Below are positions 5,542-49,290 of a stretch of 64,000 bases of DNA, piece by piece. Source of the DNA: Vairimorpha necatrix (lineage: Eukaryota); contig CP142728.1 of assembly GCA_036630325.1 (NCBI GenBank), positions 868,001 through 932,000 on the forward strand, written 5' to 3'. The notes below the pieces were generated by a model that did not search any database, had not been told where the DNA came from, and saw only the letters and a list, made by a program, of their open reading frames with translations. How positions within the stretch are numbered: the stretch's first letter is position 1; every line of letters begins with the position of its first letter. The translations under genes were made by a program, and so were the position numbers.

Positions 5542-8500
5542 TGTGATGTTATGCCTAACATCCCAATTAAGTTTTATTTGTTTATTTGTCAAATGATTCG
5601 GGATGACCAACCATGAGGCCATACAAACAAACAAAACGAAATCATATATTTCGTGGTACAATTATTAATACTCATATGTTTGTTGTAATATTGGGAAGGA
5701 CGAATACGTCATCATAAAATATAAAAGGAAACTTCACAAAGAAGGGTACAGAATGTTCAGAGAGGAAAACACTAACAAGAAGGATGAGTCTAGAAATGGG
5801 AAGATCCCATACGCCAAAATAAATATAATAATATAAACAACAATAAAAGTATTTTAAACAATTATTTTAAATTCATGAAACTTCCTGTGATACAGGACAG
5901 AATTGATATCAATTTACATAGGGTATCGCAAGAGCAAGAGTGTTCAACCAAAGAGGGGTTGACATTTAAATATACAATCGAAGAAATCGATTTAGTGGTA
6001 GAAAAAAGAATCAGTCTGATAAGAGACATTAAAGACTTTACAGAAGTCGAGTTAGATAAATGGTTTGAAAATTTAAACAGATAAGTAAACACAAAAATTG
6101 GGACTTTACAAAGGAAAAAATGGCCTTGGAACAATTAATAAGAGATCCAAGTTTACAATCGATTTTTTCACTCACTGATCTAGAAAAGATTTACAGATAT
6201 GTGGGGAAAAGTTTACCACAAAAGCTAAATCCAGAATTATTGCCAATCAAGTTGCAGAATTGCAAACAATCAAAATTTAAATTCATTAAAGAATATTTAA
6301 GCCACCTAAAGGCTCTAATTGACCAATATACTAGAATAGAAGGTCTAAATAAAAGAGAATACGAAAGAGAACTAAGAAAGAGTTTCTTCGCAGGTTTATC
6401 ATTCGAGACAAGAATGAAAGTGCTCGATTCAGGTAAGAATACTATTGAAGAGATAATAACGCATCTAGAAACAGTTGAAGAAAATTTAATTTCAGAAGGC
6501 AGAAAAAAGGGTATCATGTCAAAGACATACGACATAAGAACAGATAAGTTTGGGGATAAAAAGGACAGATACACTAGCAAGAAATGGTGTAGTCTCCACA
6601 AAAACAACACTCACAACTCAAAGGAGTGTTTAGTCTTAAATAATACCACAAGAGAGAAGCCAAGAGAAGGGAATTATAAGGATTCAAGAAGTAAGGCTGA
6701 AAGAACTTACATAATGAGAGAAGCTGGACCAACTATTTTAGACTTAGAATTAAAAGGAGATATAAATGAGAAAGAAGTAAACATAGTTTTGGACACTGGT
6801 GCCTGTCACAACTTTATAGACAGGAAACTAGTAGAGGAGAATAATCTAATAGTCAGGGAAGACAAACCCTTAAAAATAGTAACTGTGACCAACGAGAATC
6901 TTAAAATAAACTCAGTGGTAGATACAGTAGTAAGATTGAAAGGTCTAAAAAAGGAATTCAATAAGGTTTTATATGTGTTAGAGAAATCGGTAGTAGATGT
7001 AATTTTGGGAAATGAATTTATCTTTTCAAATAAGATGGTTCTAAATTTTAAAAAGAATACAATCGGAATCGGGAGTGAAACAATTAATATATTAGGAGAA
7101 AACGAAAAAGTTAAAAAAGATAATGAATTAGATGGGCTTTTCTATGAAAAATTAGGGTTAGTCAAAGAAAAGGAAGGTACAAATGAGGAATTAAATGATT
7201 TAATATATGTGTATAAAGAAGTTAACGAAAATTTCAATGTTTTTAAAATTAAGCCTGTAAAAATAAAACCCATGCACAACTCAAGCGTAAATCTGAAACG
7301 CTTGTCATACAGCGTGCCTCACAAATATGTAGACGCGGGAAAAAGAGAAATTCAAAGACTTTTAAAAGAAGAGATTATAGTAGAGGTAGATGCAGAAGTG
7401 CATAGCCCCGCATTTTTTATCGAGAAGAAAAACAAAGATTTGCGGCTAGTAATAGATTACAGAAAGGTGAACGAAATCAATAACGACGAACAATTTGATA
7501 TACCAAAAATATTTGAGAACCTACAATTAATAGGGAATATGGCATATTACACTAAGATAGATCTAAAAAATGGATTTAATAAAATTCCCATAGAACAAAA
7601 AAGTCAGGGGATAACCGCCTTCAAAATCATAAACAAAACATATATGTATAAAAGAATACCGTTTGGTATAAGATCAGGTCCTAAAATATTTCAAAAGACC
7701 ATTACTAGAATGCTGGAGGAACTTGGAAATTGCTTCGTGTATATAGACGACATCATAGTTTACGGAAAAGATAAAGCAGAACATGACGAGATAGTCATAA
7801 AGGTTTTAGAGAGACTAATGAAATTCGAAGTAAAAATAAATTTCGAAAAGACAAGCTTTTATAATGAAGAGATTAAAATATTAGGCTTCTTCATAAACAA
7901 GAAAGGTATATTCGCAGACACTAAATACTTAGAAAACAAGGCTATGCAAATAATACCAAAGAACAAAAGACAGCTCCAGAAAATAATAGGAGTATTTAAT
8001 TGGTATAGAAGATTTATAAAAAACATGAGCACTAAGTTACATAGTGTTACAAATTTATTAAAAGAAGAAAAATATGTGTGGACAGAGGAACACATGAAGA
8101 TAGTTGAAAACATTAAACAGGAGATTACCAATAACACTAAGTTAGCGTATCCTAATTTTAATGAAAAATTCATCTTAGAATGCGATCCATCCAACGTGGG
8201 AATCGGTGCGGTATTATATCAAGAAGGTGGTATAATTGGTTATTTCAGTAAAAAATTGAATAGTACCGAACAGAACTATTCTATAGTAGAAAAGGAGCTT
8301 TATGAGATAGTGAAAACATTGACATTTTTTAGAGAAATTACACAGGGTTATTATGTAGAAATTTATACAGACAATGAGAATTGTGTGTACGAAAACAAAT
8401 GTTTCACAACAAGAATGGAAAGATGGAAAGTATTACTAAACGATTATAATTTTACATTAAAGAAAATAAAAGGGACTGAAAATAACATAGCCGATAATTT

Positions 8501-9897
8501 GTCAAGATGCGGAAAGTTAAAACTAAGGAATCGAGAAGAATTTTATACAAGAAAAAGCGAAAAGTTACTTAGACGATAACCTAGATGAACTAGGTAGAAA
8601 GAAAATAATTGAAGGGAAGGAAGAAGAATTTCTAAGGTTCATACACGAAGAAAGCGAGCATGCTGGGATAATTATATGCTAATAACATAAAAAATTATGT
8701 GAAAATAAAGAATTTAGAAAATAATTAAAGAAAATCATAGGTAATTGTATTAAATGCAAAGAAAATAAAAACAATAATAAATTTGGAAAAGAAATAATTC
8801 CAATAGCGGCCAAGGAGCCATTTGAAAGAGTGAGTTCGGATATCTACGGACCATTTGAGTTAGAAGATTATAAATGCAATACTCTCAAAGAAAAGGGTTA
8901 TTTCATAACAATTACAGACATAAAGTCAAGAATTACATATATCAGGTTTTCAACGAGTATTACAATAGGAAACATAATTAAAACGTTTAAAAAATAAAAA
9001 AAAACAAGCTTCCGAAGATAATCATATCAGACAATGGAAAGCAATATAGGAATAACAAGGTAAAGGAATTTTTAGAAAGCCAAGAAATAGAGGCTAGATA
9101 TATTCCTGCATACACACCAAGCTCTAATGGAATATCTGAGAGAATAAATCAAGTAATCTCGGAAATGTTAAGAATGAACAAAGGTTTATCTATCGAAACC
9201 ATCAAGAGAAAAATTTTACATAGGTTAAATGAAAATTACAATACCAGTATAGGCTGCTCGCCAATGGCAGCTATTACTAAAAAGAATTATTTTTGCCTTG
9301 AAGAAAAGGTTGAAGAATTCAAAATTAAAGAACGAAAATTAAAAGATAATAGTACAAAAAGCATGTTAAAAACAGGAATTGAGGTGTACAAAAGGTATTT
9401 CTAACGACAAATTAGACAAAAGGTTTATTGGACCCTACCAAATAGTACAGATAGGTAATAAAGGTAGATGGGTAAAGCTAGACAATAACGAATGGATATA
9501 CGTAAAAAACTTAAAACTTTAGGGGAGGGCAGAATGTGATGTTATGCCTAACATCCCAATTAAGTTTTATTTGTTTATTTGTCAAATGATTCAGGATGAC
9601 CAACCATGAGGTCATACATACAAACAAACAAAACGAAATCATATATTTCGTGGTACAATTATTAATACTCATATGTTTGTTGTAATATTGGGAAGGACGA
9701 ATACGTCATCATAAAATATAAAAGGAAACTTCACAAAGAAGGGTACAGAATGTTCAGAGAGGAAAACACTAACAAGAAGGGTGAGTCTAGAAATGGGAAG
9801 ACCCCATACGCCCAAAATAAATATAATAATATAAACAACAATAAAAGTATTTTAAACAATTATTTTAAATTCATGAAACTTCCTGTGATACAGGACA
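5542..9897 (+). mobile_element. Ty3/gypsy element A (palindrome-PBS clade), inserted in the 5' LTR of element B
   Basis: LTRs 5542-5899 and 9535-9897, TSD CCTAC, PPT AGGGGAGGGCAGAA; no TGG-type PBS. Confidence 0.95.
6120..8579 (+). pseudogene. Main gag-protease-RT-RNase H ORF of element A; the gene as a whole (~5753-9522) is broken by frameshifts/stops, integrase in 8580-9522
   Basis: WCSLHKNNTHNSKEC knuckle, LDTGACHNFI protease, PFGIRSGPKIFQ/YIDD RT, LECDPSNVGIGAVL RNase H. Confidence 0.9.
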
Positions 9898-11458
9898 CCT
9901 ACCACATAATTTTTACATTTCTTCTATTTTTTATTTATCTCAATATTTAACAAAAATGAATTTTCTAGAAATTATTTTTTATAAATAAAAAATATTCAAA
10001 GAAGGGTACGACATAATGGACAGGAACAGAAATTATCACTATAAAAATACAACTAATATGGGAACCACAAAGATGATCCCAAACATTAATAAATTAGTTA
10101 AAAAACAAACTTACATTCGCTCCCCGTTGGAGCAATATTTTCGTTTTGGCTCCTTCACTTTAGGATACCACAATTTGAATTCAAATGATAAGAAAGCGCA
10201 ACAAGACGAGAAAAATTTAATAAAGAAAAGGTACAATTTGAAGTCCCAATACCAGGGCAAACTAAAAAATTTATAGAAGAAATTGAAAAAATAGATAACC
10301 TAAGCCAAGCTGATCTATTAGGCTGGTTTAAAAAATTCGATAAAATTAGGATTGGAAATAAATGGAGCGACGAAGATTTGCAGATAATTATGAGCCATTT
10401 GATTACAGATATAGACGTTGAAACTGACATCTTTACCAAGAAGTATATTACTATCAAAGAGGAATTTATGAAGATAATGTACCCAAAGAGCTGTTTAGGA
10501 GTGGTCATCAAGAAATTGGAAAAAAACATAAAAAAGTAATTACACCACAATCAAGTAATTTGTGCAAGAGATAGGGACATGTTTGAAAGTATATGCCTCA
10601 TTGACAAAAATAACCAAAGCCGAATATACGAGAAGGCTAAAACGACATTTCATCAATAATTTAGGAAGAGCTACAAAGATACAGCTACAGATTTTGAAAA
10701 AAGATGATGATTTTGATACGATCGTTAATTATTTGACTAAAGTTGAGAAGAAACTATTCAACTCGCAATTGGAAGAAGAGATCTAAAATTTAAATATTTC
10801 AAACCTACAATTAGAAAAATCAGGAGTATTTTTTAGCCAAAAGAGTTGGAAAGAAAATGGACGCGTCATCAAAGACAATATAAAGAATAATCTTACCACA
10901 GAGAAGAAGGATATAAAAAACACGAATATAGAGAATATAATGAAAACAGAACGACAAAATATTATGTTGTTGAACCCAAAGAGGCCATTACGGATATATA
11001 TGTTAAAATTAGATTAGATAATTCAGAAAAGGTATTAGGTCTAACTGATTTCGCATCGACAAGGAACATCATAAGCGAAACGCTAGTGGATAAGCTAAAA
11101 CTTACTAAAGTAGAAAATAAGGAAGTTAATTTAAAAATAGGAAACCGTGAAGTAATTACATTGAGCGAGACAGTAGAATGAAGTTCAAAATTTTAGGAAT
11201 ACAAGAATCATTTAGATCGGAATTTTATGTGATGAATAACCCAAGACATCCTTTAATTTTAGGGAATGTTTTTCTAGCGAATAATGATAGCATAATCGAT
11301 TATGCTAAATACGAATTACGAGTGAGAGAAGAAAAGATCCCATATTTATATACGAAACAGACGGAAGAAGAAAAAATTACGGAACCAGACAAACTCTTTT
11401 TTGAAAACTTTAATTATCAGAACGAATTTACAACCGAAAAAGATTTTTTAAATAAATT

Positions 11459-15675: not shown

Positions 15676-15718
15676 TGTTGATAATTTTAAATATTTTATA
15701 TGTAACCCCTAATTTTTT

Positions 15719-16362
15719 ATGGAGAATAACAATAAACATATTAACATGGTGGAGAATGAGATAGAACCCATGAATACAGAGATTAGTAGAGATAACATTA
15801 TAAATGAGATACGAAGGTTTGAGTTAATGTCCTTTTTTAAGAATATGGAGGACGAGAGAAAGATTGAGTGGATTATGAGTAGAGCCAGTTACGATTTAAT
15901 CGACTGGCACTACGAGATTATTGTGGGTCATAAAAAAATGACCTTTGTGAAATGGAGACAGTTGGCTTTAGAAGAATTCGGAAATAAAACATTGTCTATA
16001 GCAAAACTGCACCGAATGAAGCAGGACAAAGATGAAAGCATTAAACGATATATCATGAATGTAAAGTCTTCTTCACGGATATTTAAACTTAAAGAAGAAG
16101 AAGAAGTAATTGAAATTATTACAGGTGGATAAGAGATGAACTTGGAAGAGTAAAAAATTTTTTGGAAATTAGTGGATCTTTGGATGAAAAAATTATTGAT
16201 AAGTTGACAATCATAGAAGAAGAATGTTTGGAAGAAAATAAGAGAAAACAAGAAATGCAAGATTTACTGAAGAAACTTGAAAGTTTAAAAATCGAAACTA
16301 CTAAACAAACCATTTAATGTTACAACTGTCAAAAATTAGGACATATTGCAAGAAACTGTCGT
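15719..16362 (+). pseudogene. gag of element F (frameshift near 16130, in-frame stop near 16315)
   Basis: ATG inside the LTR; CYNCQKLGHIARNC zinc knuckle at ~16318-16360 in frame with pol. Confidence 0.8.
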
Positions 16363-19071
16363 ATGGGAACCAATTATAATCAACAGGGAAGTAAGAAAGT
16401 GAATGAAATAAGCACCGAATTATCAGACATTATTAAAAATAAAGAAAATTCAGTTTATTTTTATGGACAAGAGGTTCCTGTTACTTTTGACACTGGATCA
16501 ACGTACAACTTTATCAGTAACGCGGTAGCTGAAAAGTTTAATCTACCATTTCAATGGAATTCTAAAGAAATGATATTTAGGACCTGCCTTGAAGAGCCTT
16601 TTATTGTAAACAAACATACATTTATTGATTTGACGTATAAAGACCAAGTTTATCGTTTTAAATTTTTTATTTTACCCAAAGTGAGAATCGAGAAAGTATT
16701 GATCGGGAAAAATGGGATGAGGGAGATGATGAAAATAGATGATGAAGGATATGTGTGTGAAATCAAAACGGAACCAGGCAAAAAAGTTGTAGAACCCGTA
16801 TATACATTGTCGAAGAACATGGAAGAAGGCGTTGGAATGGCGATTCAGAAGCTTTTAAGCAAGGGATACATTCAGGAGTCTAAGTCTACGTGGCTTAATA
16901 ATATTCGGCCGGTAATAAAACCAGATGGTTCCATTCGAGTGACTACAAATTTAGTGGCGTTAAATAAACTAGTTGAACTTGACAGATATTCCCTCCCCAG
17001 AATAGACGAGATTTTATGTAATTTGCGTGGAATGAAATTTTTTTCAAAATTAGACCTGGAAGATGGTTTTTTTCAAATTAAATTGTTGGAAAGAGACAGA
17101 TTTAAAACAGCATTTAGATTTAAACATAGACTATACGAGTGGAAGGTAATGCCTCAAGGATATAAAAATTCTCCCGCAATATTCCAAAGGTTCATGGATT
17201 TTGCACTTAAAGAAGAAATAGGAAAGAGTTGTTTCTGTTACGTGGATGATATTTTAATTTTTGGCAGAAATGAAAAGGAACACGATGAGGCATATAAAAG
17301 AATTAGAGAAGCTTTGGATAGAAACAAGCTTAAAATAAATGAAGAAAAATCTAGTTTTAAACAGCGTGAAATCGACTTTTTAGGACATCATATAGAAGAA
17401 AATAGGATACTACCATTAGTTGATAAGTTACAAGGAATAGAAGATTTAAAATCACCAAAGGATAAGCAACAGCTACAGGAATTTTTAGGAACAATTAACT
17501 ACTATAGAAGATTTATTAAAGACTGCTCCGGTATATGTAGTCCACTGTATGAATTATTAAAAGACAAGAAACAGTTCATTTGGACAGAGGAAGAAGAGAA
17601 ACTTTTTAGGAAGATCAAAGAGATTCTCAAAATGAACACAGGATTATTCCAGCCAGATTATACTAAAGATTTTATTTTGACAACGGACGCTTCTAAGTAT
17701 GGAATCGCGGCAGTACTTAGTCAAATTATTGATAAAAAGGAGATACCCATTGCGTTTGCTTCTAGGAAACAAAAAGACCATGAAATTAATTATGGTATTA
17801 GTGAAAAAGAGTGTTTGGCTATGTTATGGGGCATGGAAAATTTTAATTACTTTTTATATGGAGCGAACTTTGAGGTAATAACAGATCATAAAGCATTAGA
17901 AGTGCTTAATAAAGGTGAAATTAACTCCCCGAGAATTCAAAGATGGTTAGATAGAATGTCTAGATATTGCTTTAAAGTTACGTACAGGCAGGGCAAAGAC
18001 ATACCTCACGTAGATTGTTTAAGCAGAAATTTTGATTTCGTTGAAAATGAGGAAATAAAGGATGATAATAAACAAATAGAGGAAGACAAAGAATACAGGA
18101 AGAATATTGAAAATAAAAATAACGAAGAAGAAGAAATTGAATTTAAGAAGATTAGGGTCGAAGAAAAAGAAATTGTGCGAGCTATTCATTTAGAACTATT
18201 ACATAGAGGAAAACAATCATTAGAGTATGAAATTAGAAAAAGAGGACTCAAAATTAAAAATGTAGAAAAGCTAGTTAAAGAAGTAGTAAATGAATGTGAA
18301 ATATGTTGTCAATACAATTCAAAAAAGAAAAAAAAGTTTATTTTTGTTACGGCATTCGAAAGAGGAGAAAAGGTTGCGGTGGATATAATAGGCCCAATAG
18401 GAAAGCAATATATCATATCAGCAATTGATTATTTTACTAGAGAAGGTTTTGCAAAAGTTCTTAGTTCAAGAAACGATGAAAAGGTAGTAAGTTTTATAGA
18501 AGATGTCAACGAAAAGGTCAAGATAAAAACACTTATATTAGATCAGTCAAAAGAAAATTTAAGTTCAAAGGTCGTCAACTTTTGTAAGCATCATAATATT
18601 GAGTTACATTATACCTCTCCCTACCATCACCAATCCAATGGTAGAGTAGAGAGATTTAATAGGACACTACAAGATCTAATATTTAAGAATAAGGAAGACA
18701 GTTTTTTAAAAACGAAGTTAAAAAGAGCTATAGAGATTTACAACAACACGTTTCATACTGGAATCTTAATGACACCCCAAGAAGCAACCTTGTTAAATGT
18801 ACAAGACAAACTAAGACAGATTCAAATGGAAAATATAATAAAATACAATAAAAAGAATGGAAAAGGTGAGCAAGAACATTTTTTTAGACCAGGGGAGGTT
18901 GTGCTAATCAGACAAGAAGGAAATAGAGGAAAAGGTAGCCCTAAGTTTAAGGTTCGAGGATGTGTTTATAAAGCTTTAAAAAATAATGCGTTTATAATCA
19001 AGATAGGAAAAAAGAAAATAAAAAGACACGCTTCTCAGTTAAAGCTTTTAGTTGATGAGCCAATTTTGTAG
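16363..19071 (+). CDS. Pol polyprotein (protease-RT-RNase H-integrase) of element F, open throughout
   Basis: FDTGSTYNFIS, MPQGYKNSPAIFQ, YVDD, TTDASKYG, TDHKAL, HH-CC, SNGRVERFNRT. Confidence 0.92.
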   Translation: MGTNYNQQGSKKVNEISTELSDIIKNKENSVYFYGQEVPVTFDTGSTYNFISNAVAEKFNLPFQWNSKEMIFRTCLEEPFIVNKHTFIDLTYKDQVYRFKFFILPKVRIEKVLIGKNGMREMMKIDDEGYVCEIKTEPGKKVVEPVYTLSKNMEEGVGMAIQKLLSKGYIQESKSTWLNNIRPVIKPDGSIRVTTNLVALNKLVELDRYSLPRIDEILCNLRGMKFFSKLDLEDGFFQIKLLERDRFKTAFRFKHRLYEWKVMPQGYKNSPAIFQRFMDFALKEEIGKSCFCYVDDILIFGRNEKEHDEAYKRIREALDRNKLKINEEKSSFKQREIDFLGHHIEENRILPLVDKLQGIEDLKSPKDKQQLQEFLGTINYYRRFIKDCSGICSPLYELLKDKKQFIWTEEEEKLFRKIKEILKMNTGLFQPDYTKDFILTTDASKYGIAAVLSQIIDKKEIPIAFASRKQKDHEINYGISEKECLAMLWGMENFNYFLYGANFEVITDHKALEVLNKGEINSPRIQRWLDRMSRYCFKVTYRQGKDIPHVDCLSRNFDFVENEEIKDDNKQIEEDKEYRKNIENKNNEEEEIEFKKIRVEEKEIVRAIHLELLHRGKQSLEYEIRKRGLKIKNVEKLVKEVVNECEICCQYNSKKKKKFIFVTAFERGEKVAVDIIGPIGKQYIISAIDYFTREGFAKVLSSRNDEKVVSFIEDVNEKVKIKTLILDQSKENLSSKVVNFCKHHNIELHYTSPYHHQSNGRVERFNRTLQDLIFKNKEDSFLKTKLKRAIEIYNNTFHTGILMTPQEATLLNVQDKLRQIQMENIIKYNKKNGKGEQEHFFRPGEVVLIRQEGNRGKGSPKFKVRGCVYKALKNNAFIIKIGKKKIKRHASQLKLLVDEPIL

Positions 19072-19149
19072 AGGGGGATGTTGATAATTTTAAATATTTT
19101 ATATGTAACCCCTAATTTTTTATGGAGAATAACAATAAACATATTAACA

Positions 19150-32774: not shown

Positions 32775-32997
32775 ATAGAGGTTCGATTGGTTAAGTTCTC
32801 GACTTGCCCCCCCTTACCCTAAAAAAACAAAAAAAATTATTCCACAATTGTAAAATCTATTTCAGGAATAATATCATATGCTACGATACTAAAATTGCCT
32901 ATTTCAAAAAATTCTAACATTTTATCTAATAGATTTTCACGATATATTAATTTGAATCTATTAATGTAAATCTTTCTTACAAGATTCATAATAGTAC

Positions 32998-35900
32998 TGT
33001 AGGAAGTGCTACACATGTCAAATATATGGTGTCATTGTTTTGACATATTTGACATGTCGTTTCTTTAAATATTTTATAATAATTAAACCCATGTTTTTAT
33101 CCCAACAATTTGGCGACAATGTCAAAAACTTTCTCATTTTCAGAAATGAAGAGAAAGATGATCCACAGCAGTTCTTGGAGGACTTGCAGGATGTGGGGAG
33201 GGTGATGGAATACAGTGAGAGTAAACTTGTACTCCTTTTCAGAATGTCGTTAGAGGAAGAGGCGAGGGATTGGTTGATAGCGCAGCCAATTGGTCTTTCA
33301 CTTGAAAGACTGAAATTTTTGTTTCAAGAAAGATTTGTGGGTCCTATGGCGATGAAAGTGAGTATAGATAAACTTTCCGCCCTTCAATATCATGGTGGAT
33401 CGCTCATCAACTATCTAGATAAAATGGCGGGATTGGCGCGCAGGGCGAATGTTCCGGAAGGCGTATTGATTGCCTTTGTACTAAAAGGAATTCCGAACCA
33501 TTTAGCAAATTCGATCTTAATAAACAACAAGGACTCATTATCTTGGGAGTACTTATATAAAGCCATAAGAAATGTTTTGGAAGTGGATGATACAAGTCAT
33601 AAAGAAATTTTGCGTGGAGGTTATGTGGATGTAAAAGCGATTAGCTGCAAGGACCACGATAGAAAGATTTGGACTTCGAAAAGGAACAAAGAAAAGAGAT
33701 GTTTTATTTGCGGAAAGAAAGGCCATATAGTAGCACGGTGTAAATTTAATAGTTACCGTAGAGATATTATCGAAGTCAAGAAAAGTCAAGAGGAAGAAGG
33801 AGAAAATAAGAAGGTGGATGTAAAGGAATTTATTTATAATTATTCTGTTACAGAGGTCAAGGATTATAGGACTACTCTCAAAGAAGCGTCACTAAATGAT
33901 GGGGAAGTTAAATTTAAAGTGCTTATCGATACTGGTGCTGATATAAATTTAATTAGACCAGAGTTTTTGCCAAATAAAACCGTTGTTAATCGTTCTAAAC
34001 AACAGCTTAGGCCAGCCAATGGATCGAAAATAAGGATCATTGGAGAAACAGTAGTTAAAATAAAAATTGAGGGTATGATATTTGAAGATAAATTCATTAT
34101 TACTAGGGATATCACAATTCCCTGCATTATAGGAAAGGGGTTACTCAACATGTACAAGATAAATTTAAAATTTGGAAATAATAAAATGGAAATTGAATCT
34201 GGACTCTTGGCAAAGGGAAAAGCCATAGGATATCATAAAATTATCACAAAGGATGATAACACAATACTATCTCAATTATATAAATTGGGGGGGAGCAAAA
34301 GAGGATATTGCGTCCCAAATAGTGAAAGAGTATCTAAAACGTGGAATAGTTAGACCTAGTGTAAGCGCATGGAGAAGCCCGATAATTATAGTCCCAAAAA
34401 AGAACGGAGACCACAGATTATGTGTGGATTATCGAAGATTAAATGATGCGACTATTAGAGATGCGTATCCAATGCCCCGTGTAGAAGAGTTCATCAATGC
34501 TTTAGAGGGTGCAACATACTTTACTAAATTAAACGCTGAATCGGGCTATCACCAAATAGATATGGCGCCGTGTGATATTGAGAAGACAGCCTTTGCCTGT
34601 AGAGAAGGCTTATTTGAATTTACAAAAATGCCATTTGGACTTGTTAATGGTCCAGCTACATTTCAGCGGGTGATGAATAACATATTGAGGGAATTTTTGT
34701 TTAAGTTTGTGGTAGTATATTTGGATGATATACTGATTTATAGTAAAACTGAAGAAGATCATAAGAAAGATGTCCAGATGGTATTAGAGAAGCTCAAGTC
34801 GGTAGGACTGAAACTTAATGAGGATAAATGCGAATTTAATAAGACCGAATTAAAAATTTTAGGTCATGTGATATCAAAAGAGGGAATAAGTATGGACGAA
34901 GAAAGAGTTAGGAGCATTCAACAGTTACCAATTCCTAAAAATAAGAAGAAATTACAATCTTTGTTGGGGCTGTATAATTATTGCTCTAAATTTATTAAAA
35001 ACGGCCATAAAGTGGTTAGCCCACTATTCGATATAATAAGACTTAAGAATGAGGACGCTGATAACTTTTGGAAAAAGCGGAGATTGATAAAAATTACTGC
35101 AAGGCAGTCGAAGAGGTAAAACAGGCTATGAAGAGAACAGCCTTGTTGACAATACCAAATTTAAAGGATAAATTTATATTGACTACGGATGCATCGAATG
35201 AGGGATGTGGGGCCACATTGGCTCAGATGGTTGAAGGGAAAGAAAAGATTATTTCCTATTACAGCTCTTTACACTCCAAGACAGAAAAAAACTATTCTAC
35301 TACTGAGCAAGAATTGCTAGCAGTTATAAAATCGATTCAAAACTTCAGAGAATATTTATTATTGGGGAAATTTACTCTAAAAACGGATCATCAGGCTTTA
35401 AAATATTTATTTAAGTCCAGAAATGTAAAAGCTAGGTTGGCTAGATGGTCATTACTGCTACAAGAATATGATTTCGATATTGAATATATTACAGGACCAT
35501 CGAACTATACAGATCACCTAAGCAGAGATTTTAAAAAACAGGAGGAGAACGTTTCAGAAATAAGTTCAATACAAAGGAAAATAGTTAAAAAAGAAAGGAC
35601 AATAGTGCTATTAAAGTTTTACCATGATTTATTAGGTCACGGATCAAAACAAAATATGAAATATAATATTGGTCGAAAATTTACCTGGAAGAATATGAGT
35701 AGAGACATAGAAAAATATGTAGATAATTGTGAAATTTGTCAGAAAGAAAAACCTCAGAGAAAATTTAGAGATATTGTACCATTAGTAACAAAGACAATAG
35801 GAGAAATCTGGGAAGTAGACATAGTAGGGCCCTTGAGAGAAAGCGTGCAAGGATATAAATTTTTATTGACAATGATTGATCACTTTTCGAAAATTGCAGA

Positions 35901-36696
35901 GGTGGTGCCGATTTATACAAAAGATATAATACGGTTATTTATCTGATAGATAAACATATAGTCAGGAAGTATGTTATTCCAAAGGCCATTTTATCTGATA
36001 ATGGTAAAGAATTCAAAAATAATATCTGTGATGAATATGCGAAGACCAAAAAATTCATCTGGAAATATGGTTCCCCTTACAAACCTACAGCCACGGGGCT
36101 TGTTGAGAGGTTTAACAGAACAATAGCCATAAAATTAAGGAAGATTATAGAATTCGGGAAATTTGATTGGGCAAAATGTGTCCCTAAAGTAGTCAGAGCC
36201 TATATGCAATCATATCATAGGGCTATAGGGTGTGCACCAATAGAACTCTTAACAGGAATAGTTCCAAATAAGATAGATATACAAGAAGGAATGCATCTAA
36301 CAAAGGATAAGAAAGAGTTTCAGAAGCAGGCGATTAAGAACTTGGAAGTTTACAGACAAGAATATGACACGGGTAAAAAAGCTAATTCTGTTGATAAAGA
36401 GGCCATTAAGGTGGGAGATAGAGTTTGGTATTATTTAATTTTACCGTTTAGAGGAAAACTCGAACCAAAATGGGAAGAAAAAGGAGTGGTAGTAGATAAA
36501 AAATTTCATTCATTTAAGTTTTATTAGATAGTGGGAAGATTGTTACAGCAAGCCGAAATCATGTTAAGCTTTTAAAGGAGGGGTAGTGTAGGAAGTGCTA
36601 CACATGTCAAATATATGGTGTCATTGTTTTGACATATTTGACATGTCGTTTCTTTAAATATTTTATAATAATTAAACCCATGTTTTTATCCCAACA
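32998..36696 (+). mobile_element. Ty3/gypsy element G with 110-bp LTRs
   Basis: Identical LTRs 32998-33107 and 36587-36696, TSD AGTAC, PBS TGGCGACAATG, PPT AAAGGAGGGGTAG. Confidence 0.95.
33091..36575 (+). pseudogene. gag-pol of element G, frameshifted (~34290, ~35070, ~35930)
   Basis: CFICGKKGHIVARC, IDTGADIN, MPFGLVNGPATFQ, YLDD, TTDASNEG, WEVDIVGPL. Confidence 0.9.
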
Positions 36697-37580
36697 AGTA
36701 CCATGACTAGTTCCGCTTTTTCTTAGTTTTCTTTTAATAACCGACCACATTCCCTCTATAATCTGAGTATGCGCACCAGTTATATTATCAACAAAATTTT
36801 AGCTGTGATTCACAATCAAATGTAGATACTCATATTCTACACAGATTGTTTGAATATCACTATAGCCGCGCCAACAATCTATCACAATTGTGGTCTCCCT
36901 GAGCAATTTTCTTGTGATTAATTCAACAAGAGTAGCTCTTGTTCTATTTTCTACGATTTCGAAGAAAGAAGAATTCGCATCCCCTCTCACAACGCCTCCA
37001 ACTGCCCATACTTGATATTAAAGAACCCTTCCCGCATGGTTTTTACTTTTTACAAGTAAAGTTTCATCAATTTTAACAATACAACCGACGCCGTCAATCG
37101 TTTGATTGTTTATATATGTTGAATAGGAGACGTACACGGCGTTATTAAAACGAGTAAACCATCTTGATACCGTACATTTACCAATATCAAGTTCTAACGT
37201 GGCGGCCAAATTACTTGAAACCATTACCCATTCGCAAATCAATATTAAAAGATCCTCAATAGGCAATTTTGTGTTCTTAAAAACGCTTTGTTTCATTATG
37301 GTTCCTTTGTTAGAACATTTTGTACCATCACGTCTTAAATAACAACGATAGTTTTCAGTGTTGGTCCAGATTTTGAGTCATTGGTACATTGCATTTATTG
37401 CGCATAAGGACCCTCAAAATGTTTCTTGCAATTAAAAATTGCATTAACTCATTTTTTTTATAGATGAGTTTTCTAAATTTTTTTATTCTCGTTATGGGTC
37501 AAATAATTTGTTTTTTTATTTTCCCCCTTTTTTTTATTTTTTTTAGGGGTGGGGGGGGGGGGTAAGTCGAGAACTTAACC

Positions 37581-41291: not shown

Positions 41292-42512
41292 GGTTAAGTT
41301 CTCGACTTACCCCCCCCCCCCCCACCCCTAAAAAAAATAAAAAAAAATAAAAAAAGGGGAAAAAATAAAAAAAAATAAAAAAAGGGGGGAAAAATAAAAA
41401 AATAAATTATTTGACCCATAATGAGAATTAAAGAATTTAGAAAACTCATCTATAAAAAAAATGAGTTAATGCAATTTTTAATTGCAAAAAACATTTTGAG
41501 GGTCCCTATGTGCAATAAATGCAATATACCAATGACTCAAAATCGGTCCAACACTGAAAACTATCGTTGTTATTCAAGACGTGATGGTAAAAAATGTTCT
41601 AACAAAGGAACCATAATGAAACAAAGCGTTTTTAAGAACTCAAAATTGCCTATTGAGGATCTTTTAATTTTGCTTTGCGAATGGGTAAAGGGTTCAAGTA
41701 ATTTGGCCGCCACGTTAGAACTTGATATAGGTAAATGTACGGTATCAAGATGGTTTACGCGTTTTAATAACGCCGTGTACGTCTCTTATTCAACATATAT
41801 AAACAATCAAACGATTGGCGGCGTCGGTTGTATTGTTGAAATTGATGAAACTTTACTTGTAAAAAGTAAAAACCATGCGGGAAGGGTTCTTCAATATCAA
41901 GTATGGGCAGTTGGAGGCGTTGTGAGAGGGGATGCAAATTCTTTTTTATTTGAGATCGTAGAAAATAGAACAAGAGCTACTCTTGTTGAATTAATTACAA
42001 GAAAAATTGCTCCGGGGACCACAATTGTGACAGATTGTTGGCGTGGATATAGTGATATTCAAACAATCTGTGTAGAATATGAGTATCTACATTTGACTGT
42101 GAATCACAGCCAAAATTTTGTTGATAATATAACTAGTGCGCATACTCAGACTATAGAGGGAATGTGGTCGGTTATTAAAAGAGAACTAAGAAAAGGCGGA
42201 ACTAGTCATGGTACTATTATGAATCTTGTAAGAAAGATTTACATTAACAGATTCAAATTAATATATCGTGAAAATCTATTAGATAAAATGTTAGAATTTT
42301 TTCAAATAGGTAATTTTAGTATTGTAGCTTATGATATTATTCCTGAAATAGACTTTACAATTGTGGAATAATTTTTTTTGTTTTTTTTGGGGGTAAGGGG
42401 GGGGGGTTAAGTCGAGAATTAAACGTTTTTTTATTTTTTTTTATTTTTTCCCCTTTTTTTATTTTTTTTTATTTTTTTTAGGGGTGGGGGGGGGTAAGTC
42501 GAGAACTTAACC
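41292..42512 (+). mobile_element. Merlin DNA transposon, apparently intact
   Basis: TIR GGTTAAGTTCTCGACTTACCCC, TSD AACGAAAT. Confidence 0.96.
41421..42371 (+). CDS. Merlin/IS1016-like DDE transposase (316 aa)
   Basis: CCC just upstream of ATG; N-terminal CxxC..C..C; VEIDETLL, TDCWRGY, VNHS, HTQTIEGMWS. Confidence 0.93.
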   Translation: MRIKEFRKLIYKKNELMQFLIAKNILRVPMCNKCNIPMTQNRSNTENYRCYSRRDGKKCSNKGTIMKQSVFKNSKLPIEDLLILLCEWVKGSSNLAATLELDIGKCTVSRWFTRFNNAVYVSYSTYINNQTIGGVGCIVEIDETLLVKSKNHAGRVLQYQVWAVGGVVRGDANSFLFEIVENRTRATLVELITRKIAPGTTIVTDCWRGYSDIQTICVEYEYLHLTVNHSQNFVDNITSAHTQTIEGMWSVIKRELRKGGTSHGTIMNLVRKIYINRFKLIYRENLLDKMLEFFQIGNFSIVAYDIIPEIDFTIVE

Positions 42513-43506: not shown

Positions 43507-43817
43507 GACAGCCCGTGTTTTTTCACTGTTAATGTAATTTTTTTTATTTTATGCTCATGATCTTATTTATCAGCAAATGATTATTATACAATTTAATACT
43601 TCAGAAATTTGAGTATACAACTGTATTCCAACTTTTCAACTTCTCGCGACACGTGGGATGCGCAAGCGCTATAAGGTCTTGTCCATTGAAGTTGGTATAA
43701 CTAACGGTACTCAAATTTCTGAAGTATATAATTCGTATAATAATCATTTGCTGTTAAAAAAGATCATGAGCATAAAATATAAAGATTTTTACACTAGCAG
43801 AAAAAAAATTGACTGTC
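43507..43817. repeat. Long imperfect inverted repeat (~130-bp arms, ~45-nt GC-rich loop)
   Basis: Arms 43507-43640 and 43686-43817; e.g. TATTTTATGCTCATGATCTT/AAGATCATGAGCATAAAATA, CAGCAAATGATTATTATAC/GTATAATAATCATTTGCTG, ATACTTCAGAAATTTGAGTA/TACTCAAATTTCTGAAGTAT. Confidence 0.9.
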
Positions 43818-44343
43818 TTGGATTAGATATTGTATAATACTCTATTTTTTAAAATACTATATGTCACCGTTCAGACCGGACGCCCGTTCGGACTGGACGC
43901 CGGGGGTAAAAAATTAAAAAAAAATCTCTCCAGTCAGGGGCGAACCAGAAAATAAGAACAAATAAATGTTCGTCTTTAAGACAGCTCAAATTTCTTCTGA
44001 TTTTTTGAGGGGGGAATTTTTGTTTTTTTTTTATAATAATGGGAGGGAATAATGAAAAAAGGAGAAAAATAAAATAAACAAAATTTTTAGTACTTTATTC
44101 ATTACTGAGGTGGTCACGAGGGATGAACCCTCGTTGAAAGTAGGCCTCTAGCAAACTACTTGTAAACGGCTCCTTGGGCCTTGTTTGTTTATTATTTAAA
44201 AAATGTTTATTGTTGTTTTTCTGCATCTACTTCTTTCTTTTTGTTGGGGTCGAAAAATAATATTTTTTAAAAAAAATATTTAAGAAATTCCATTTTGGGG
44301 AAATGGAATTTTACATGTGGTTGTAATACCACATTCTGCCCCC

Positions 44344-44798
44344 TTAGAGTTTAATGTTCTTAATATGCGTCCATCCACTATTTCCTTTCAGTTTAATCCA
44401 GTACCCTTTATTGCCAACACATAATACCTTCTTCCTCTTGCTCCATTTTGGTCCTAATTTTTTAGCATTATATATTCTTTCCCTACAAATGTCTCCAACT
44501 TTTACCAAATAGATTTTTTCTTCTTTTAAGACACTAATATGATTGTAATCTCTCTGTAATGGGTCATAAATATTAAATCCATTAATGATTGAAAATGGAG
44601 AAGATTTTATCGTTCTATTATAATTGAAATTAATCGCATTTTCTGCCTTCATAACGACTTCTCGTATATTTAAACCTTTGTTGAAGCTCAGGGCGAATGA
44701 AATTGTTTTATTTATTGCTTCCGATACACCATTAGAGCTTGGTGTGTATGAGGGTATCAAGGTATGTAGTATTTTTTCTTTTATTAAATAATCTTTAG
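44344..44798 (-). pseudogene. C-terminal integrase part of element C, separated by a Merlin insertion
   Basis: PSYTPSSNGVSEAINKT and GPKW; continues the 46051 ORF across TSD ATCTTTAG. Confidence 0.88.
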
Positions 44799-46056
44799 GG
44801 TTAAATTGCGATGTTACCCCCCCCCCCCCACCCCTAAAAAAATAAAAAAAAAGGGGAAAAAATAAAAAAAAGGGGAAAAAATAAAAAAAGGGAAAAAATA
44901 AAAAAAGGGGAAAAAATAAAAAAAAAGAGGAAAAATTATACCCCCTAAAATGAACATAAAGAATTTTCGAAAATTAATATATAAAAAAGAGGAATTATTA
45001 TTATTTCTTCTTGAAAAAAATAAATTAAAGGTACCAATGTGCAATAAGTGCATGACTCCCATGACCAAAATTAGAAATAATTTGGACAAATATCGTTGTT
45101 ACTTACGACGAAATGGGAGAAAATGCTCAAACGAAGGTAACATTTACAAAGAAAGCATTTTTAAAAGTTCTAGATTAGATATCGAAGATCTTTTAATTTT
45201 GCTGTGTGAATGGGTTAAAGGTGTAAGCAATGTTTCGGCTACTATCGAATTGGATATAGATAGTAGTACCGTATCTCGCTGGTTTACGCGTTTTAATAAC
45301 GCTGTATTCTTATCCTATTTCAACTACATAAAAAACAAAACCATAGGAGGTTTAAACTGCGTAGTTGAAATAGACGAGACATTGCTTGTTAAAAGTAAAA
45401 ACCATAACGGTAGAATCCTTCAATACCAAGTTTGGGCCGTTGGTGGAGTTGTAAGAGGAGACAGCAATTCTTTTTTTTTCGAAATTGTTGAAAATCGATC
45501 AAGAACTACTCTTGTCGATTTAATAAAACGGAAAATCGCACCTGGATCTACAATTATTACTGATTGTTGGCGGGGTTATGAAGGGTTTTCGGAACTATGT
45601 CTGGATTATAACTATTTACATTTAACTGTAAATCATAGCCAAAATTTTATAAATCCAACAACAGGCGCCCACACCCAAACAATTGAGGGAATGTGGTCTG
45701 TAATTAAAAGGGAATTGCGCAAAGAAGGAACAAGCCATGGTTCTTTAATGAATTTAATTCGAAAACTTTATATAGCTCGTTTTAGGTTAATTTATAGAGA
45801 ATCACTACTTGAAAGAATGTTGTGCCTTTTTGAAGTTCAAAATATATGGTTGTTAAATTACGATTTGGCCCCTGAATTTGATTTTGAATTAGTTGAATAA
45901 ATTTTATTTTTCCTCTTTTTTTTTATTTTTCCCCATTTTTTTATTTTTTCCCTTTTTTTATTTTTTCCCCTTTTTTTTATTTTTTCCCCTTTTTTTTATT
46001 TTTTCCCCTTTTTTTTTATTTTTTTAGGGGTGGGGGGGTAACATCGCAATTTAACC
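44799..46056 (+). mobile_element. Merlin DNA transposon, apparently intact
   Basis: TIR GGTTAAATTGCGATGTTACCCC, TSD ATCTTTAG, subterminal A/G-rich tandem repeats. Confidence 0.96.
44950..45900 (+). CDS. Merlin/IS1016-like DDE transposase (316 aa)
   Basis: VEIDETLL, TDCWRGY, HTQTIEGMWS; paralogous to 41421-42371. Confidence 0.93.
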   Translation: MNIKNFRKLIYKKEELLLFLLEKNKLKVPMCNKCMTPMTKIRNNLDKYRCYLRRNGRKCSNEGNIYKESIFKSSRLDIEDLLILLCEWVKGVSNVSATIELDIDSSTVSRWFTRFNNAVFLSYFNYIKNKTIGGLNCVVEIDETLLVKSKNHNGRILQYQVWAVGGVVRGDSNSFFFEIVENRSRTTLVDLIKRKIAPGSTIITDCWRGYEGFSELCLDYNYLHLTVNHSQNFINPTTGAHTQTIEGMWSVIKRELRKEGTSHGSLMNLIRKLYIARFRLIYRESLLERMLCLFEVQNIWLLNYDLAPEFDFELVE

Positions 46057-49000
46057 ATCTTTAGTTGTGTTACTTATAAACTGGCGTCCCCTGTCTGAAA
46101 TTATAGATGTTGGTTTCCCAAAAGTTGTAATCCAATTTTCAAAACATCTTAACACCGAGTCTGAATTTATAGTGTATAAGAAATAAAGTTTAGTATATCG
46201 GGAATATATATCCGTCATGGTAAGGATATATCCTACCTCTTTCCTTTCTGAAATAATAAAATTATCAAGACTAAAAGGGCCGAAAATATCGGTACTTACC
46301 TTTTCAAATTTTCTTTGTGCTACTATATTGCCAGTGATATATTTTTTAGGATGCTTATTTTTATAAATTCCACAAATTTTACATTTGCTAATGGTATTTC
46401 TTATTTCTTTAAAGATTCGTTTTATATAGTAATAGCGCTTTATATTGTAATATAGGGTAGAAATTCCTCTATGAAGTCCAAATTCATGCATAAATGATAT
46501 AAATTTTTTTACTTGGTTAAATTTAACTATGTAGCGCTTTTCTTTATCAAATATAAAGTTACCGTTTTTGTCTCTGAGACAACATTCTTGGTTTAGTTCA
46601 ATAATTTCTTCGTGATTATTGTTTTCATTATTTCCGATTCCAATGAAATTTCTTGATAGATTATCTGCCATACAATTTTTATTACCATCTATATGATTTA
46701 GTGAAAAACTAAATTCATTTAACAACAATTTCCATCTATTAATTCTTGATGTTTCTATTTTATTTTCATAGATACAATTTTTACTATCAGTATAAATCTC
46801 TACATAAGATCCTTGGATTATGTTTTTAAAATTGAGCATAGATAAAACAATTGCCAAAAATTCCTTCTCAACAATACTGTAATTTAATTCTGGACCAGAA
46901 AATTTTTTACTATAATATCTAATGATTTTATCCTTTTGTGTTAGTGTACTTCCTAAACCTATTTCGCTCGCGTCAACGTGTAATGTAAATTTACTATTGT
47001 AATCGGGAAATGATAACATATGATTACCTAAAATCCACTCTTTAATTCTGTCAACTTCCTTTCTCATTTCGGTCGTTATTTTAATTTTATTTTCATTCTT
47101 GTTTTTTAACATATCTGTTAATTTATTAATCCTTATCGAAAGATCTGGAATAAACTTTCTGTACCAGTTTATCACTCCTAACAGTTTTTGTAAATCCTTT
47201 TTCGTTCTTATTTCTTTCTCGAATATTCTATTATTTAAATAATTGGTTTTTGGAAAAATTCCTTCGTGATTTATTTTGTAACCCAAAACTTCAATTTCTG
47301 GTTGAAAAAACTTCGATTTTTCGAAATTTATTTGGACATTTTTGCTATATAAAGTTTCTAGTATTTTTTCTACGGAAATTAAATGACTTTCTTTTGTTTT
47401 ATTATAAATCACAATATCATCTATGAAAACAAATACATTATCGAAATCTCCTAAAATGTTTGAAATATTTCTTTGAAATAATTTTGGGCCAGGCTTAATT
47501 CCAAAGGGAATTCTCTTGTATTGCCACTGTTGTCCTAATAAAAAAAACGATGTATATTTCTTGCTTTGTTCATCTATTTTTATCTGATTAAATCCGTTAC
47601 TTAAATCAATCTGCGTAAAAAATTTGTTAGATCCCATTATTGTTAGACAATCCTCAATTTTGGGCAATATCCATGGGTCATCTTGTAAAGCTTTATTTAC
47701 TTCCCTATAATCTACTACTAAACGTAAATCTTTATTTTTCTTTTCTATAAAAAATGCAGGGCTTATTATATCAGAAGAACTCTTTTCAATTATATCTGCA
47801 TCTAAAAGTCTTTTAATTTCCATTTTCGCCTTTTCAATATATTTAAATGGAACTGTATAGGTAATCTTCTTTGTTTTTAAAACTGGTTGTATTACATTAA
47901 ACGAAGCTAGGTTTGTTTTCATAGAGGTAAATTTTTTGTTTTCTTTAATATAGAAGTCTAATAGTTTATTAAATTCTTCGCTTTCGCTAACCTGACATAA
48001 TTTATTAACTATTTCTTTATCTAGCAATTCCTCAGCATTTCCCTCTTTATGTACCATGTCAATTCGTAGTCCATCTAATTCTACCGTTCCTTCGGCGTAA
48101 TCTAACTTTGCACAATGCATGTCAAGAAATTCGTTCCCTAGAACAAAATTAACGGGTAATTTTTCTAAAACGCAAAATTTTACTTCAAAAGGTTTTTCTT
48201 TTATCGTAACAACAGTATTGACCATTTCATTGGATTCTGCTGTTTCATTATTTCCAAAAATGGTTTTAATTCTAGCACATTCTTCTTTCTTTAAATTAAA
48301 TTCATTAACTGCGCTTTTAGTAATATAATTTCTCCTTGATCCGCTATCTAATAGCATTTTCACATCCTTATTACCTATTTTTCCTATTACAGTAATGTCT
48401 TCGGGACATTGGCTACGTTGTTTAATAATCATATTTTTATCCTTGTGATCTGCAAATTCAGGCAATCTTTTTTTATTCTGTAAGGCGTAACAACGCCTGG
48501 TATCATGAGTATAGTTACTCTTATGAAGTGAGCACCATTTCGGGTTATTAAATTGAGTATTTCTGTTATAATCAAAATTTTCTTTTTCATAATGGGTATT
48601 GGGTTTCTCGACTTTAGTTAAAATTTCATAAATTTCCTTACTTATCATATTTTGTCTTGTTAATTCTAAATGTGTGAAATCTCCTAGTCCCTTTAAAAAT
48701 ACTTCTTCCATTTTATGCAGAGCTTCTCTTTTTTTTAGATCATTATAATATGAATAACTGTTAAGTCTTTCCTCGATTGTTTCTTTATATTCTTTGATAC
48801 TAAAATAACTTATTTGGCTTGTATTATCTAATTCACGTATCGCATGTCTTTTTTGTTCCGGTGGATAAATAAAATTCAACAGTGACTTTCTTAATGCAAT
48901 ATAAGAATCTGATGGTAAATAATCTTTTCTTGGATCGTGTATACAATCCATGTAAATCAAAGCCATTTGTTCGTCATTCCAATCATTTGCTTTAGCTAAC

Positions 49001-49290
49001 ATCTCAAATTTTTGGAGTTGATTTATGGTTAAATCTTGTTGAATATCATAAATGTTATAAATTTTTACTTTGCTCTTAACTGCAGTTCCTTGTATATTTT
49101 TTTTAAATTCTGTATGTTCTTTTTCTTTCTTTTCATCTTTGATATGAGTTTTCCTTGTTGAATTCAACTTGAGGTGGTCACGAGGGATGAACCCTCGTTG
49201 AAAGTAGGCCTCTAGCAAACTACTTGTAAACGGCTCCTTGGGCCTTGTTTGTTTATTATTTAAAAAATGTTTATTGTTGTTTTTCTGCAT
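46051..49290 (-). CDS. Single-frame gag-pol polyprotein of element C, truncated in integrase by the Merlin insertion
   Basis: WCSLHKSNYTHDTRRC, LLDSGSRRNYI, PFGIKPGPKLFQ, FIDD, HVDASEIG, HH-CC, SDRGRQF. Confidence 0.92.
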   Translation of the reverse strand: MQKNNNKHFLNNKQTRPKEPFTSSLLEAYFQRGFIPRDHLKLNSTRKTHIKDEKKEKEHTEFKKNIQGTAVKSKVKIYNIYDIQQDLTINQLQKFEMLAKANDWNDEQMALIYMDCIHDPRKDYLPSDSYIALRKSLLNFIYPPEQKRHAIRELDNTSQISYFSIKEYKETIEERLNSYSYYNDLKKREALHKMEEVFLKGLGDFTHLELTRQNMISKEIYEILTKVEKPNTHYEKENFDYNRNTQFNNPKWCSLHKSNYTHDTRRCYALQNKKRLPEFADHKDKNMIIKQRSQCPEDITVIGKIGNKDVKMLLDSGSRRNYITKSAVNEFNLKKEECARIKTIFGNNETAESNEMVNTVVTIKEKPFEVKFCVLEKLPVNFVLGNEFLDMHCAKLDYAEGTVELDGLRIDMVHKEGNAEELLDKEIVNKLCQVSESEEFNKLLDFYIKENKKFTSMKTNLASFNVIQPVLKTKKITYTVPFKYIEKAKMEIKRLLDADIIEKSSSDIISPAFFIEKKNKDLRLVVDYREVNKALQDDPWILPKIEDCLTIMGSNKFFTQIDLSNGFNQIKIDEQSKKYTSFFLLGQQWQYKRIPFGIKPGPKLFQRNISNILGDFDNVFVFIDDIVIYNKTKESHLISVEKILETLYSKNVQINFEKSKFFQPEIEVLGYKINHEGIFPKTNYLNNRIFEKEIRTKKDLQKLLGVINWYRKFIPDLSIRINKLTDMLKNKNENKIKITTEMRKEVDRIKEWILGNHMLSFPDYNSKFTLHVDASEIGLGSTLTQKDKIIRYYSKKFSGPELNYSIVEKEFLAIVLSMLNFKNIIQGSYVEIYTDSKNCIYENKIETSRINRWKLLLNEFSFSLNHIDGNKNCMADNLSRNFIGIGNNENNNHEEIIELNQECCLRDKNGNFIFDKEKRYIVKFNQVKKFISFMHEFGLHRGISTLYYNIKRYYYIKRIFKEIRNTISKCKICGIYKNKHPKKYITGNIVAQRKFEKVSTDIFGPFSLDNFIISERKEVGYILTMTDIYSRYTKLYFLYTINSDSVLRCFENWITTFGKPTSIISDRGRQFISNTTKDG

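Follow-up and report, generated by a model that had tools for sequence, protein, structure and literature searches.

The subject of this work is a 64-kb stretch of the genome of the microsporidian Vairimorpha necatrix (NCBI GenBank assembly GCA_036630325.1, contig CP142728.1, positions 868,001 to 932,000 of the forward strand), hereafter "the window", whose positions are counted from its first letter, and, within it, a clade of Ty3/gypsy long terminal repeat (LTR) retrotransposons. The window has a G+C content of 31% and consists throughout of nested transposable elements, comprising several families of Ty3/gypsy elements along with numerous DNA transposons of the Merlin/IS1595-like type. Four copies of the clade are considered, and we will refer to them as A, B, C and D. 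In three out of three elements with an independently fixed 5' LTR end (A, B and C), a perfect palindrome of 12–14 nt with the core TTGA-NN-TCAA lies 0–1 nt past the LTR, in the position of the primer-binding site.

Organization of the Clade and Its Elements

The reverse transcriptase (RT)/RNase H regions of A, B and D are mostly 44–48% identical to that of C (36% for the RNase H half of D), whereas the corresponding values are 24–37% for all other Ty3 copies of the window and for 16 of 18 loci from metagenome contigs, the two shortest of these loci excepted. Since the identity to C exceeds that of the other Ty3 copies and of the metagenome loci, the A–D clade is considered real. The named proteins closest to the clade proteins are microsporidian in every case. 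A scan of DNA for further members gave no relatives among viral contigs; the 18 metagenome loci (25–41% identical to the RT/RNase H of C over the matched stretches) and three loci from prokaryote genome contigs (31–38%) were set aside as lying outside the clade. As for the motifs that a first-pass annotation of the window had proposed as common property, the RT motif PFGIKPGPKLFQ is seen in C, and the knuckle WCSLH..H..C in both C and A. The LTRs begin with TG and end with CA, 5-bp target-site duplications flank A, C and a related solo LTR, Pfam matches follow the order protease, RT, RNase H, integrase, and a polypurine tract precedes the 3' LTR. In all structural respects tested, the primer site excepted, A–D are ordinary Ty3/gypsy elements.

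Element A lies on the forward strand, with a 5' LTR at 5542–5899 (TG...CA, ending in ...GGACA) and a 3' LTR at 9535–9897 that is 97.8% identical to it and is preceded by the polypurine tract AGGGGAGGGCAGAA at 9521–9534; the duplication CCTAC is found at 5537–5541 and 9898–9902. Its open frame (6120–8579) encodes the Gag knuckle, protease, RT and RNase H, and remnants of the integrase follow at 8803–9068. The 5' LTR of B, on the same strand, is split into its first 13 nt (5529–5541) and its main part (9903–10172, ending in ...ACCACA), because A was inserted into it. An open frame of B (10016–10273) begins within the LTR and crosses the palindrome, with the Gag N-terminus ..LEQYFRFG..GYH|NLNS.., where the bar marks the junction. 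A B-type 3' LTR at 26489–26763 (forward strand) is 82% identical to the 5' LTR of B, is preceded by the polypurine tract GAAAGGGGCAGGA and encodes the same Gag N-terminus, as does a solo B-type LTR at 53465–53733 (forward strand), flanked by the duplication GAAGC and represented by empty-site contigs in runs X1 and X2. The LTR end of B was set at ...AC(C/G)ACA by agreement with these two LTRs.

Element C lies on the reverse strand. Its LTRs, of 228 bp, are 100% identical; the 5' LTR occupies 49170–49397, with the end ...CCTCA at 49170, and the 3' LTR 44106–44333, next to the polypurine tract AAGGGGGCAGAA at 44345–44334, while the duplication GTAAT is found at 49398–49402 and 44101–44105. Its target site is uninterrupted (empty site) in contigs of run X2, and there is a loose end at 49398. 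The polyprotein frame (46051–49290, 1079 aa) comprises Gag, protease, RT, RNase H and integrase; its ATG is situated within the LTR, 120 nt ahead of the LTR end, and it is truncated in the integrase by a Merlin/IS1595-like insertion at 44797–46062. The whole element (44101–49402) has been inserted into the integrase gene (frame 49344–50783) of a further Ty3 element. Lastly, D is a degenerate body at 58132–61521 on the reverse strand (Gag 61521–61222, protease 60932–60576, RT/RNase H 59237–58132) containing an IS1595-like insertion. Just 12 nt of its 5' LTR are left (61751–61740) because the 71-bp LTR of another element abuts on it, and its LTR end is an inferred one.

A Palindrome in the Place of the Primer Site

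The palindrome of A, AATTGATATCAATT, is found at 5901–5914 (forward strand), one nucleotide (G5900) after the LTR; that of B, ATTTGAATTCAAAT, at 10173–10186 (forward strand), directly after the LTR end at 10172; and that of C, GTTGAATTCAAC, at 49157–49168 (reverse strand), one nucleotide (A49169) after the LTR. They are read in the Gag frame as (R)IDIN, NLNSN and (K)LNS(T), respectively. The LTR ends of A–C were fixed independently of the palindromes, by target-site duplications, polypurine tracts, the empty site and the B-type LTRs. In D, the imperfect palindrome TCGAATTTGA, with one G-T pair, follows the LTR remnant at 61730–61739 (reverse strand). Palindromes of at least 12 nt have 49 centres in the 64-kb window, about 8e-4 per position. 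The core TTGANNTCAA occurs four times against 3.55 expected in the window, and three of these four occurrences are those at the A–C junctions.

No TGG, the start of an ordinary primer site complementary to a tRNA 3' end, is found within 90 nt after the LTR end in A, B, C or D; the first one comes at 97, 152, 189 and 95 nt, respectively, where counting for D began about 10 nt upstream of its inferred LTR end. The complement of a tRNA 3' end near the 5' LTR, by which the tRNA-primed class is recognized, is therefore missing from A–D. By comparison, a TGG primer site lies 0–3 nt after the LTR in all three of the further Ty3 families that were checked here: two of them share the ordinary TGG-type site TGGCGACAATG (at about 1732 and 33111), and a family with 71-bp LTRs, outside the clade, has TGGTGGAG at 15747–15754 on the forward strand, after its 5' LTR at 15676–15746. 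No tRNA gene and no Rfam match was found in the window. The first-pass annotation had been right, then, on the coordinates and junction position of the palindromes of A, B and C, on the missing TGG sites of these three elements and on the ordinary ones of the three other families checked; the palindrome it had described in D does lie where it was placed, but it is the weaker case, being imperfect and attached to an LTR reduced to 12 nt.

Covariation and Coding Within Gag

When the four copies are aligned on the centre of the palindrome, 89.3% of the pair cells are standard pairs and in three of the seven pairs both members differ between copies. At the centre, A has TA where B, C and D have AT; at pair 4, D alone has CG, against TA in the other three; and at pair 6, A shows AT, B shows TA and C shows GC. 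The pairing or covariation score was reached by only 2 of 500 shuffles, and slid registers pair at 21–58%. Four related sequences thus suggest compensatory change, as had been proposed from the symmetry of sites differing in sequence.

The palindrome is also translated. B and C each have an open frame that runs from an ATG within the LTR through the junction, the palindrome being read as (N/K)-L-N-S. The peptides encoded by the LTRs of B, of the B-type 3' LTR, of the solo LTR and of C are homologous to each other and to that of a database relative, P0001 (..EPFT..LLE.YF..G..), and Gag is for this reason considered to start inside the LTR; the N-terminal block ..LLE.YF..G.. is encoded at 10016–10273, 26613–26763, 53583–53733 (solo LTR) and 49290–49170 (reverse strand). 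In element A, the LTR is crossed by this Gag frame too (..SILNNYFKF..), with the palindrome one base later, so that R-I-D-I-N is read instead of LIS; the palindrome of D is in the frame register of A. Because A carries the palindrome in a shifted register, the nucleic-acid symmetry is kept where the peptide is not. The difference in residues between IDIN and LNS, which had been taken as evidence that symmetry alone is conserved, does reflect this shift in A; it needs to be corrected in that LNS is a family-wide Gag motif, since the palindrome lies within the Gag frame begun in the LTR.

Distribution Among Gag Relatives

A phmmer search with residues 1–300 of the C Gag against 1.84 billion representative sequences (E<=1e-3) retrieved 88 relatives. 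For the junction we considered the 33 hits with a reported alignment start no later than query residue 40, together with B, C and the relative P0002 (36 in total), and a MAFFT alignment of all 33 hits shows the block LLE.YF..G..P...x-[LM]-[NSIT]-S-x. Each aligned pentapeptide was then evaluated for whether it can be encoded by a palindrome with the same centre and frame; an unregistered version, in which any 6-mer peptide able to encode a palindrome of at least 12 nt counts, was discarded as too unspecific in favour of this register-specific test, because 15–18% of positions fit it. The pentapeptide is compatible with an in-frame palindrome in 36 of 36 sequences at 10 nt and at 12 nt, and in 23 of 36 at 14 nt. 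Taken over all 3450 positions of these segments, the corresponding background is 5.0%, 4.0% and 2.7%, respectively. Separate permutation of the columns gave means of 21.6 and 14.5, and none of 5000 permutations reached 36; the outcome was the same for the 29 distinct pentapeptides. A lack of the palindrome in most other clade members, which according to the first-pass annotation would speak against its proposal, is not what these proteins indicate.

The residues also vary together. All 27 sequences with L as first residue have a fourth residue with an A-starting codon, and all six with M have one with a T-starting codon; in 35 of 36 sequences the middle position is occupied by N, S, I or T, with K, R and M never found there, the codons of N, S, I and T including A+AT, A+GC, A+TA and A+CG. 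The palindrome variants inferred from these peptides include TTGAATTCAA, TTGAGCTCAA, TTGATATCAA, TTGACGTCAA, ATGAATTCAT and ATGAGCTCAT, as well as ATGATATCAT, TTAAGCTTAA, TTAAATTTAA, GTAAATTTAC and ATAAGCTTAT. Twenty relatives were looked up, of which 11 are named; all of these belong to Microsporidia and represent five genera (Vairimorpha apis, V. necatrix, Nosema granulosis, Dictyocoela muelleri, D. roeselum, Anncaliia algerae and Pancytospora epiphaga). We regard the palindrome as a confirmed feature, real, conserved and covarying, and one that, judging from the proteins of these relatives, reaches far beyond the window.

A V. necatrix protein annotated as an ERO1 oxidoreductin (P0044, 834 aa) contains the Gag N-terminal block, including SLNSS, at residues about 115–391; a gene fusion or an annotation error may lie behind this gene model.

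Search for a Pairing Partner and Predicted Folding

A complement of the kind used by Tf1 was sought in the LTRs of A, B and C. The longest exact matches are 6–7 nt, a length equalled in 54–95% of shuffles, and the energies of palindrome–LTR duplexes are equalled or beaten by those of 71–89% of shuffled LTRs; the earlier statement that these LTRs hold no consistent Tf1-like complement thus holds for exact matches and for energies alike. No second complementary site of at least 10 nt was found within A or C, the best matches being 7–9 nt, nor was a second box like that of the fungal GalEa elements found in the 150 nt that follow the palindrome, the fraction of shuffles with a fold at least as good being 0.34 (A), 0.44 (B), 0.086 (C) and 0.70 (D).

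The predicted energy of the self-duplex of the palindromes is −14.0 to −17.2 kcal/mol. In the minimum-energy folds of A, B and C, a 4–6 bp hairpin forms at the palindrome inside a larger stem between U5 and the leader, with modest local fold z-scores (A −1.5, B −1.9, C −2.5); D has a z-score of −0.48 and no flanking stem. The U5–leader stems differ between elements and show no conservation.

A Proposed Model of Priming in an RNA Dimer and Its Alternatives

During LTR formation, the 3' end of the minus-strand primer sets the 3' end of U5. Since the palindrome begins 0–1 nt after the end of U5, its 5' half is by position the primer-binding site. The primer would have to end with the sequence of the 3' half, and the element's own RNA would be the one molecule guaranteed to carry that sequence in every lineage. 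A single host RNA, moreover, cannot match all the sites, because different palindromes coexist in one genome (A vs. B and C). On this basis, our preferred reading, which we put forward tentatively, is that a lineage of microsporidian Ty3/gypsy elements could well use the palindrome as its primer-binding site, doing without tRNA priming and priming instead in trans within an RNA dimer. Two packaged element RNAs would pair at the palindrome into a duplex of 12–14 bp abutting U5; one strand would be cut at the 3' edge of its palindrome; and the new 3'-OH, paired to the first base of the partner palindrome, would be extended into U5 and R, yielding minus-strand strong-stop DNA. By analogy with Tf1, the nuclease could be the RNase H of the element: the RNase H domain of Tf1 reportedly cuts an RNA duplex to produce the primer, and Tf1 is also said to prime in trans. 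We infer all three of the essential points, namely that the primer would be the element's own RNA, that the pairing would be intermolecular and that a cut would take place.

A corollary concerns the perfection of the palindrome. tRNA primers are copied into plus-strand strong-stop DNA. If the primer proposed here were copied likewise, progeny elements would inherit in their 5' half any change that had arisen in the 3' half, and the palindrome would be self-correcting and, hence, perfect.

The first alternative is that the palindrome acts as a dimer-linkage or packaging signal like those of retroviral leaders, while priming depends on another primer, such as a host RNA fragment pairing with the first few bases. 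The stable self-duplex predicted and the complementarity of the central pair both fit a dimer, and palindromes of the 5' leader are established as elements of retroviral RNA dimerization, as also discussed in the GalEa paper (PMC5445492). However, the gap of 0–1 nt between U5 and the palindrome leaves no room for a separate primer site, no TGG lies nearby, and the bases adjacent to U5 differ within the genome (GAATTGA, ATTTGA, AGTTGA), the common TTGA being too short for a shared host primer, so that we consider this explanation unlikely.

A second alternative keeps the priming role and dispenses with the dimer: after a cut following the palindrome, its 3' half would snap back onto the 5' half of the same molecule as a small hairpin and be extended into U5. 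Neither the geometry nor the cut site would differ from those of the dimer model, and a 4–6 bp hairpin at the palindrome is what the minimum-energy folds of A, B and C contain. Against this, the stems would comprise merely 4–6 AU-rich pairs, the flanking stems differ between elements and D shows none; the central pairs cannot form in a hairpin and yet stay complementary through compensatory change, which favours a duplex of two molecules over the snap-back and makes the latter improbable. In this sense, where the first-pass annotation had let the palindrome pair either with itself or with the second packaged RNA, we retain the second option, the complementarity of the central pair arguing against the first.

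Third, the symmetry could belong to double-stranded DNA, as the binding site of a dimeric protein (half-site TGA, bZIP-type TGA-NN-TCA) involved in the control of transcription or integration. The invariant T2/A9 and A4/T7 and the mostly G3/C8 pair do give a TGA..TCA core, and the inferred variant TTGACGTCAA contains the classical CRE octamer. Nevertheless, pairs 1, 5 and 6 vary freely and still remain complementary, which a protein ignoring those bases would not enforce, G3/C8 is replaced by A/T in several inferred variants, and the absent primer site is left unexplained; this we regard as a distinctly improbable account. The weakest explanation, a conserved Gag peptide motif x-L-N-S-x with the palindrome as a by-product of codon choice, has in its favour the location in the conserved N-terminal block ..LLE.YF..G..P.., but is close to negligible given that A has the palindrome in another frame and encodes IDIN, that the choice of L or M at the first position varies together with the first base of the fourth residue's codon, and the preceding residue with the second base of that codon, that the middle position takes I beside N, S and T and never K, R or M, and that the flanking residues are otherwise unconserved.

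Several points weigh against trans priming in a dimer as well. The duplex is short and AU-rich, there is a 1-nt spacer in A and C and none in B, and a symmetric site in double-stranded DNA would look palindromic too. Furthermore, LTR ends are fixed for A, B and C only, the 33 relatives being known from proteins, so that a palindrome in them means coding compatibility, and these relatives share ancestry, by which the shuffle counts overstate independence. Among the other 55 phmmer hits, 30 begin past the motif, and the remaining 25 are divided into 13 with a family-type motif and 12 without it, the background of this stricter motif being 84 of 30,466 positions.

Other Features of the Window

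The family with 71-bp LTRs is represented by a complete element of about 3.5 kb at 15676–19149, and by an inverted partial copy, 98.7% identical, at 61743–64000; the final A of the LTR and the TG of the primer site TGGTGGAG together supply the start codon of this family. Another LTR element, at 1370–4309, has LTRs of about 361 bp (96% identical) and a 2.2-kb body with an RT fragment, and shares its primer site TGGCGACAATG with an unrelated family at 32994–36697.

Six Merlin/IS1595-like transposase frames (Pfam DDE_Tnp_IS1595) are found at 28547–29428, 41421–42371, 44950–45900, 54137–55021, 57219–57911 and 59390–60070. Three full copies of about 1.25 kb (20162–21388, 41292–42512 and 44799–46062) possess GGTTAA...C-run inverted termini beside repeats spaced 19 nt; one insertion of this type breaks the integrase of C and one lies in D. 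Two long perfect palindromes are also present away from LTR junctions, one of 32 nt, ATTTTTCTTAAAGGGGCCCCTTTAAGAAAAAT, at 57066–57097 and one of 20 nt at 11288–11307 in the body of B.

Comparison With Known Systems

To our knowledge, minus-strand synthesis in LTR retroelements is known to start in only two ways, from a host tRNA (whole or half) or by the Tf1-type fold-back of the transcript 5' end. The Tf1/sushi elements (Tf1, Tf2, Tj1) reportedly self-prime on their own RNA independently of tRNA, which is said to require a cut in an RNA duplex; tRNA-independent priming by the element's own RNA is the likeness proposed here for A–D. The difference is that Tf1 pairs its primer site with the initial 11 nt of its transcript, within the LTR, and that no such complement is present in A, B and C, which therefore fall outside the definition of Tf1-type self-priming. 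Nor is the Tf1 primer site palindromic, according to the GalEa paper (PMC5445492). Concerning the Tf1/sushi chromodomain, PF00385 is absent from the precomputed Pfam list of one full-length relative, P0002, the integrase of C being interrupted.

In retroviruses, dimer initiation or linkage palindromes (HIV-1 DIS, MLV PAL) are self-complementary sequences of the 5' leader through which two genomes pair. They accompany a tRNA primer site, usually in a hairpin loop, whereas the palindrome of A–C occupies the primer-site position itself, and no separate tRNA primer site is present in A–D. In the yeast Ty1, Gag translation begins in the 5' LTR, so that the coding sequence of Gag includes the primer site. 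Ty1 thus shares the LTR-internal Gag start with the clade, but it is a copia-type element primed by the initiator tRNA-Met (TGGTAGCGCC). The dictyostelid Skipper elements come close in another respect: they are Ty3/gypsy elements that have lost TGG and have no complement in the LTR, and a novel self-priming is suspected, although a polypyrimidine stretch takes the place of the palindrome (PMC5006619). In the open-access literature searched, supplements excluded, no paper was found that links Microsporidia with an unusual primer site, and the words "PBS" and "primer" are both missing from the text of the principal survey of such elements in Microsporidia (Parisot 2014, PMC4202319).

The closest parallel is provided by the fungal Ty1/copia elements GalEa, where a 10-nt palindrome at the LTR junction, the Conserved Hairpin Site, is proposed by its authors to replace the primer site (Donnart 2017, PMC5445492). 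Since GalEa was described before, the idea of a palindrome in place of a primer site is not without precedent, and the first-pass annotation, which knew of no such description, has to be corrected on this point. The authors report no complement found in U5 and leave the mechanism unknown (PMC5445492). Both systems belong to hosts of the fungal lineage, lack a tRNA primer site and carry a palindrome right after the 5' LTR, but they differ in four respects (PMC5445492): GalEa is Ty1/copia, whereas A–D are not copia elements, their integrase following RT/RNase H; its 10-nt palindrome includes the last A of the LTR, which those of A–C do not; it has a second box, CHSeq2, 12–41 bp downstream, in which an A/A mismatch is fixed, and no counterpart of this box was found in A–D; and its site is called a non-coding region, whereas the microsporidian palindrome is translated within Gag.

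If priming in trans within a dimer were true, dimerization and priming would be a single event, and the element would be freed from host tRNAs, with a possible escape from silencing based on tRNA fragments. At a practical level, LTR annotation tools that require a tRNA primer site will miss or mis-score elements of this clade in microsporidian genomes, and the signature x-[LM]-[NSIT]-S-x can serve as a simple lineage marker. More speculative than the model itself, and possible rather than probable in our opinion, is that A–D exemplify a third way of starting the reverse transcription of LTR elements: a reciprocal trans priming in an RNA dimer, at a self-correcting palindromic site translated within Gag, which would be ancestral to a Microsporidia-wide Ty3/gypsy lineage and might have been reached independently by GalEa. 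Were dimer priming correct, it would also supply a testable model for the unexplained palindrome of the latter.

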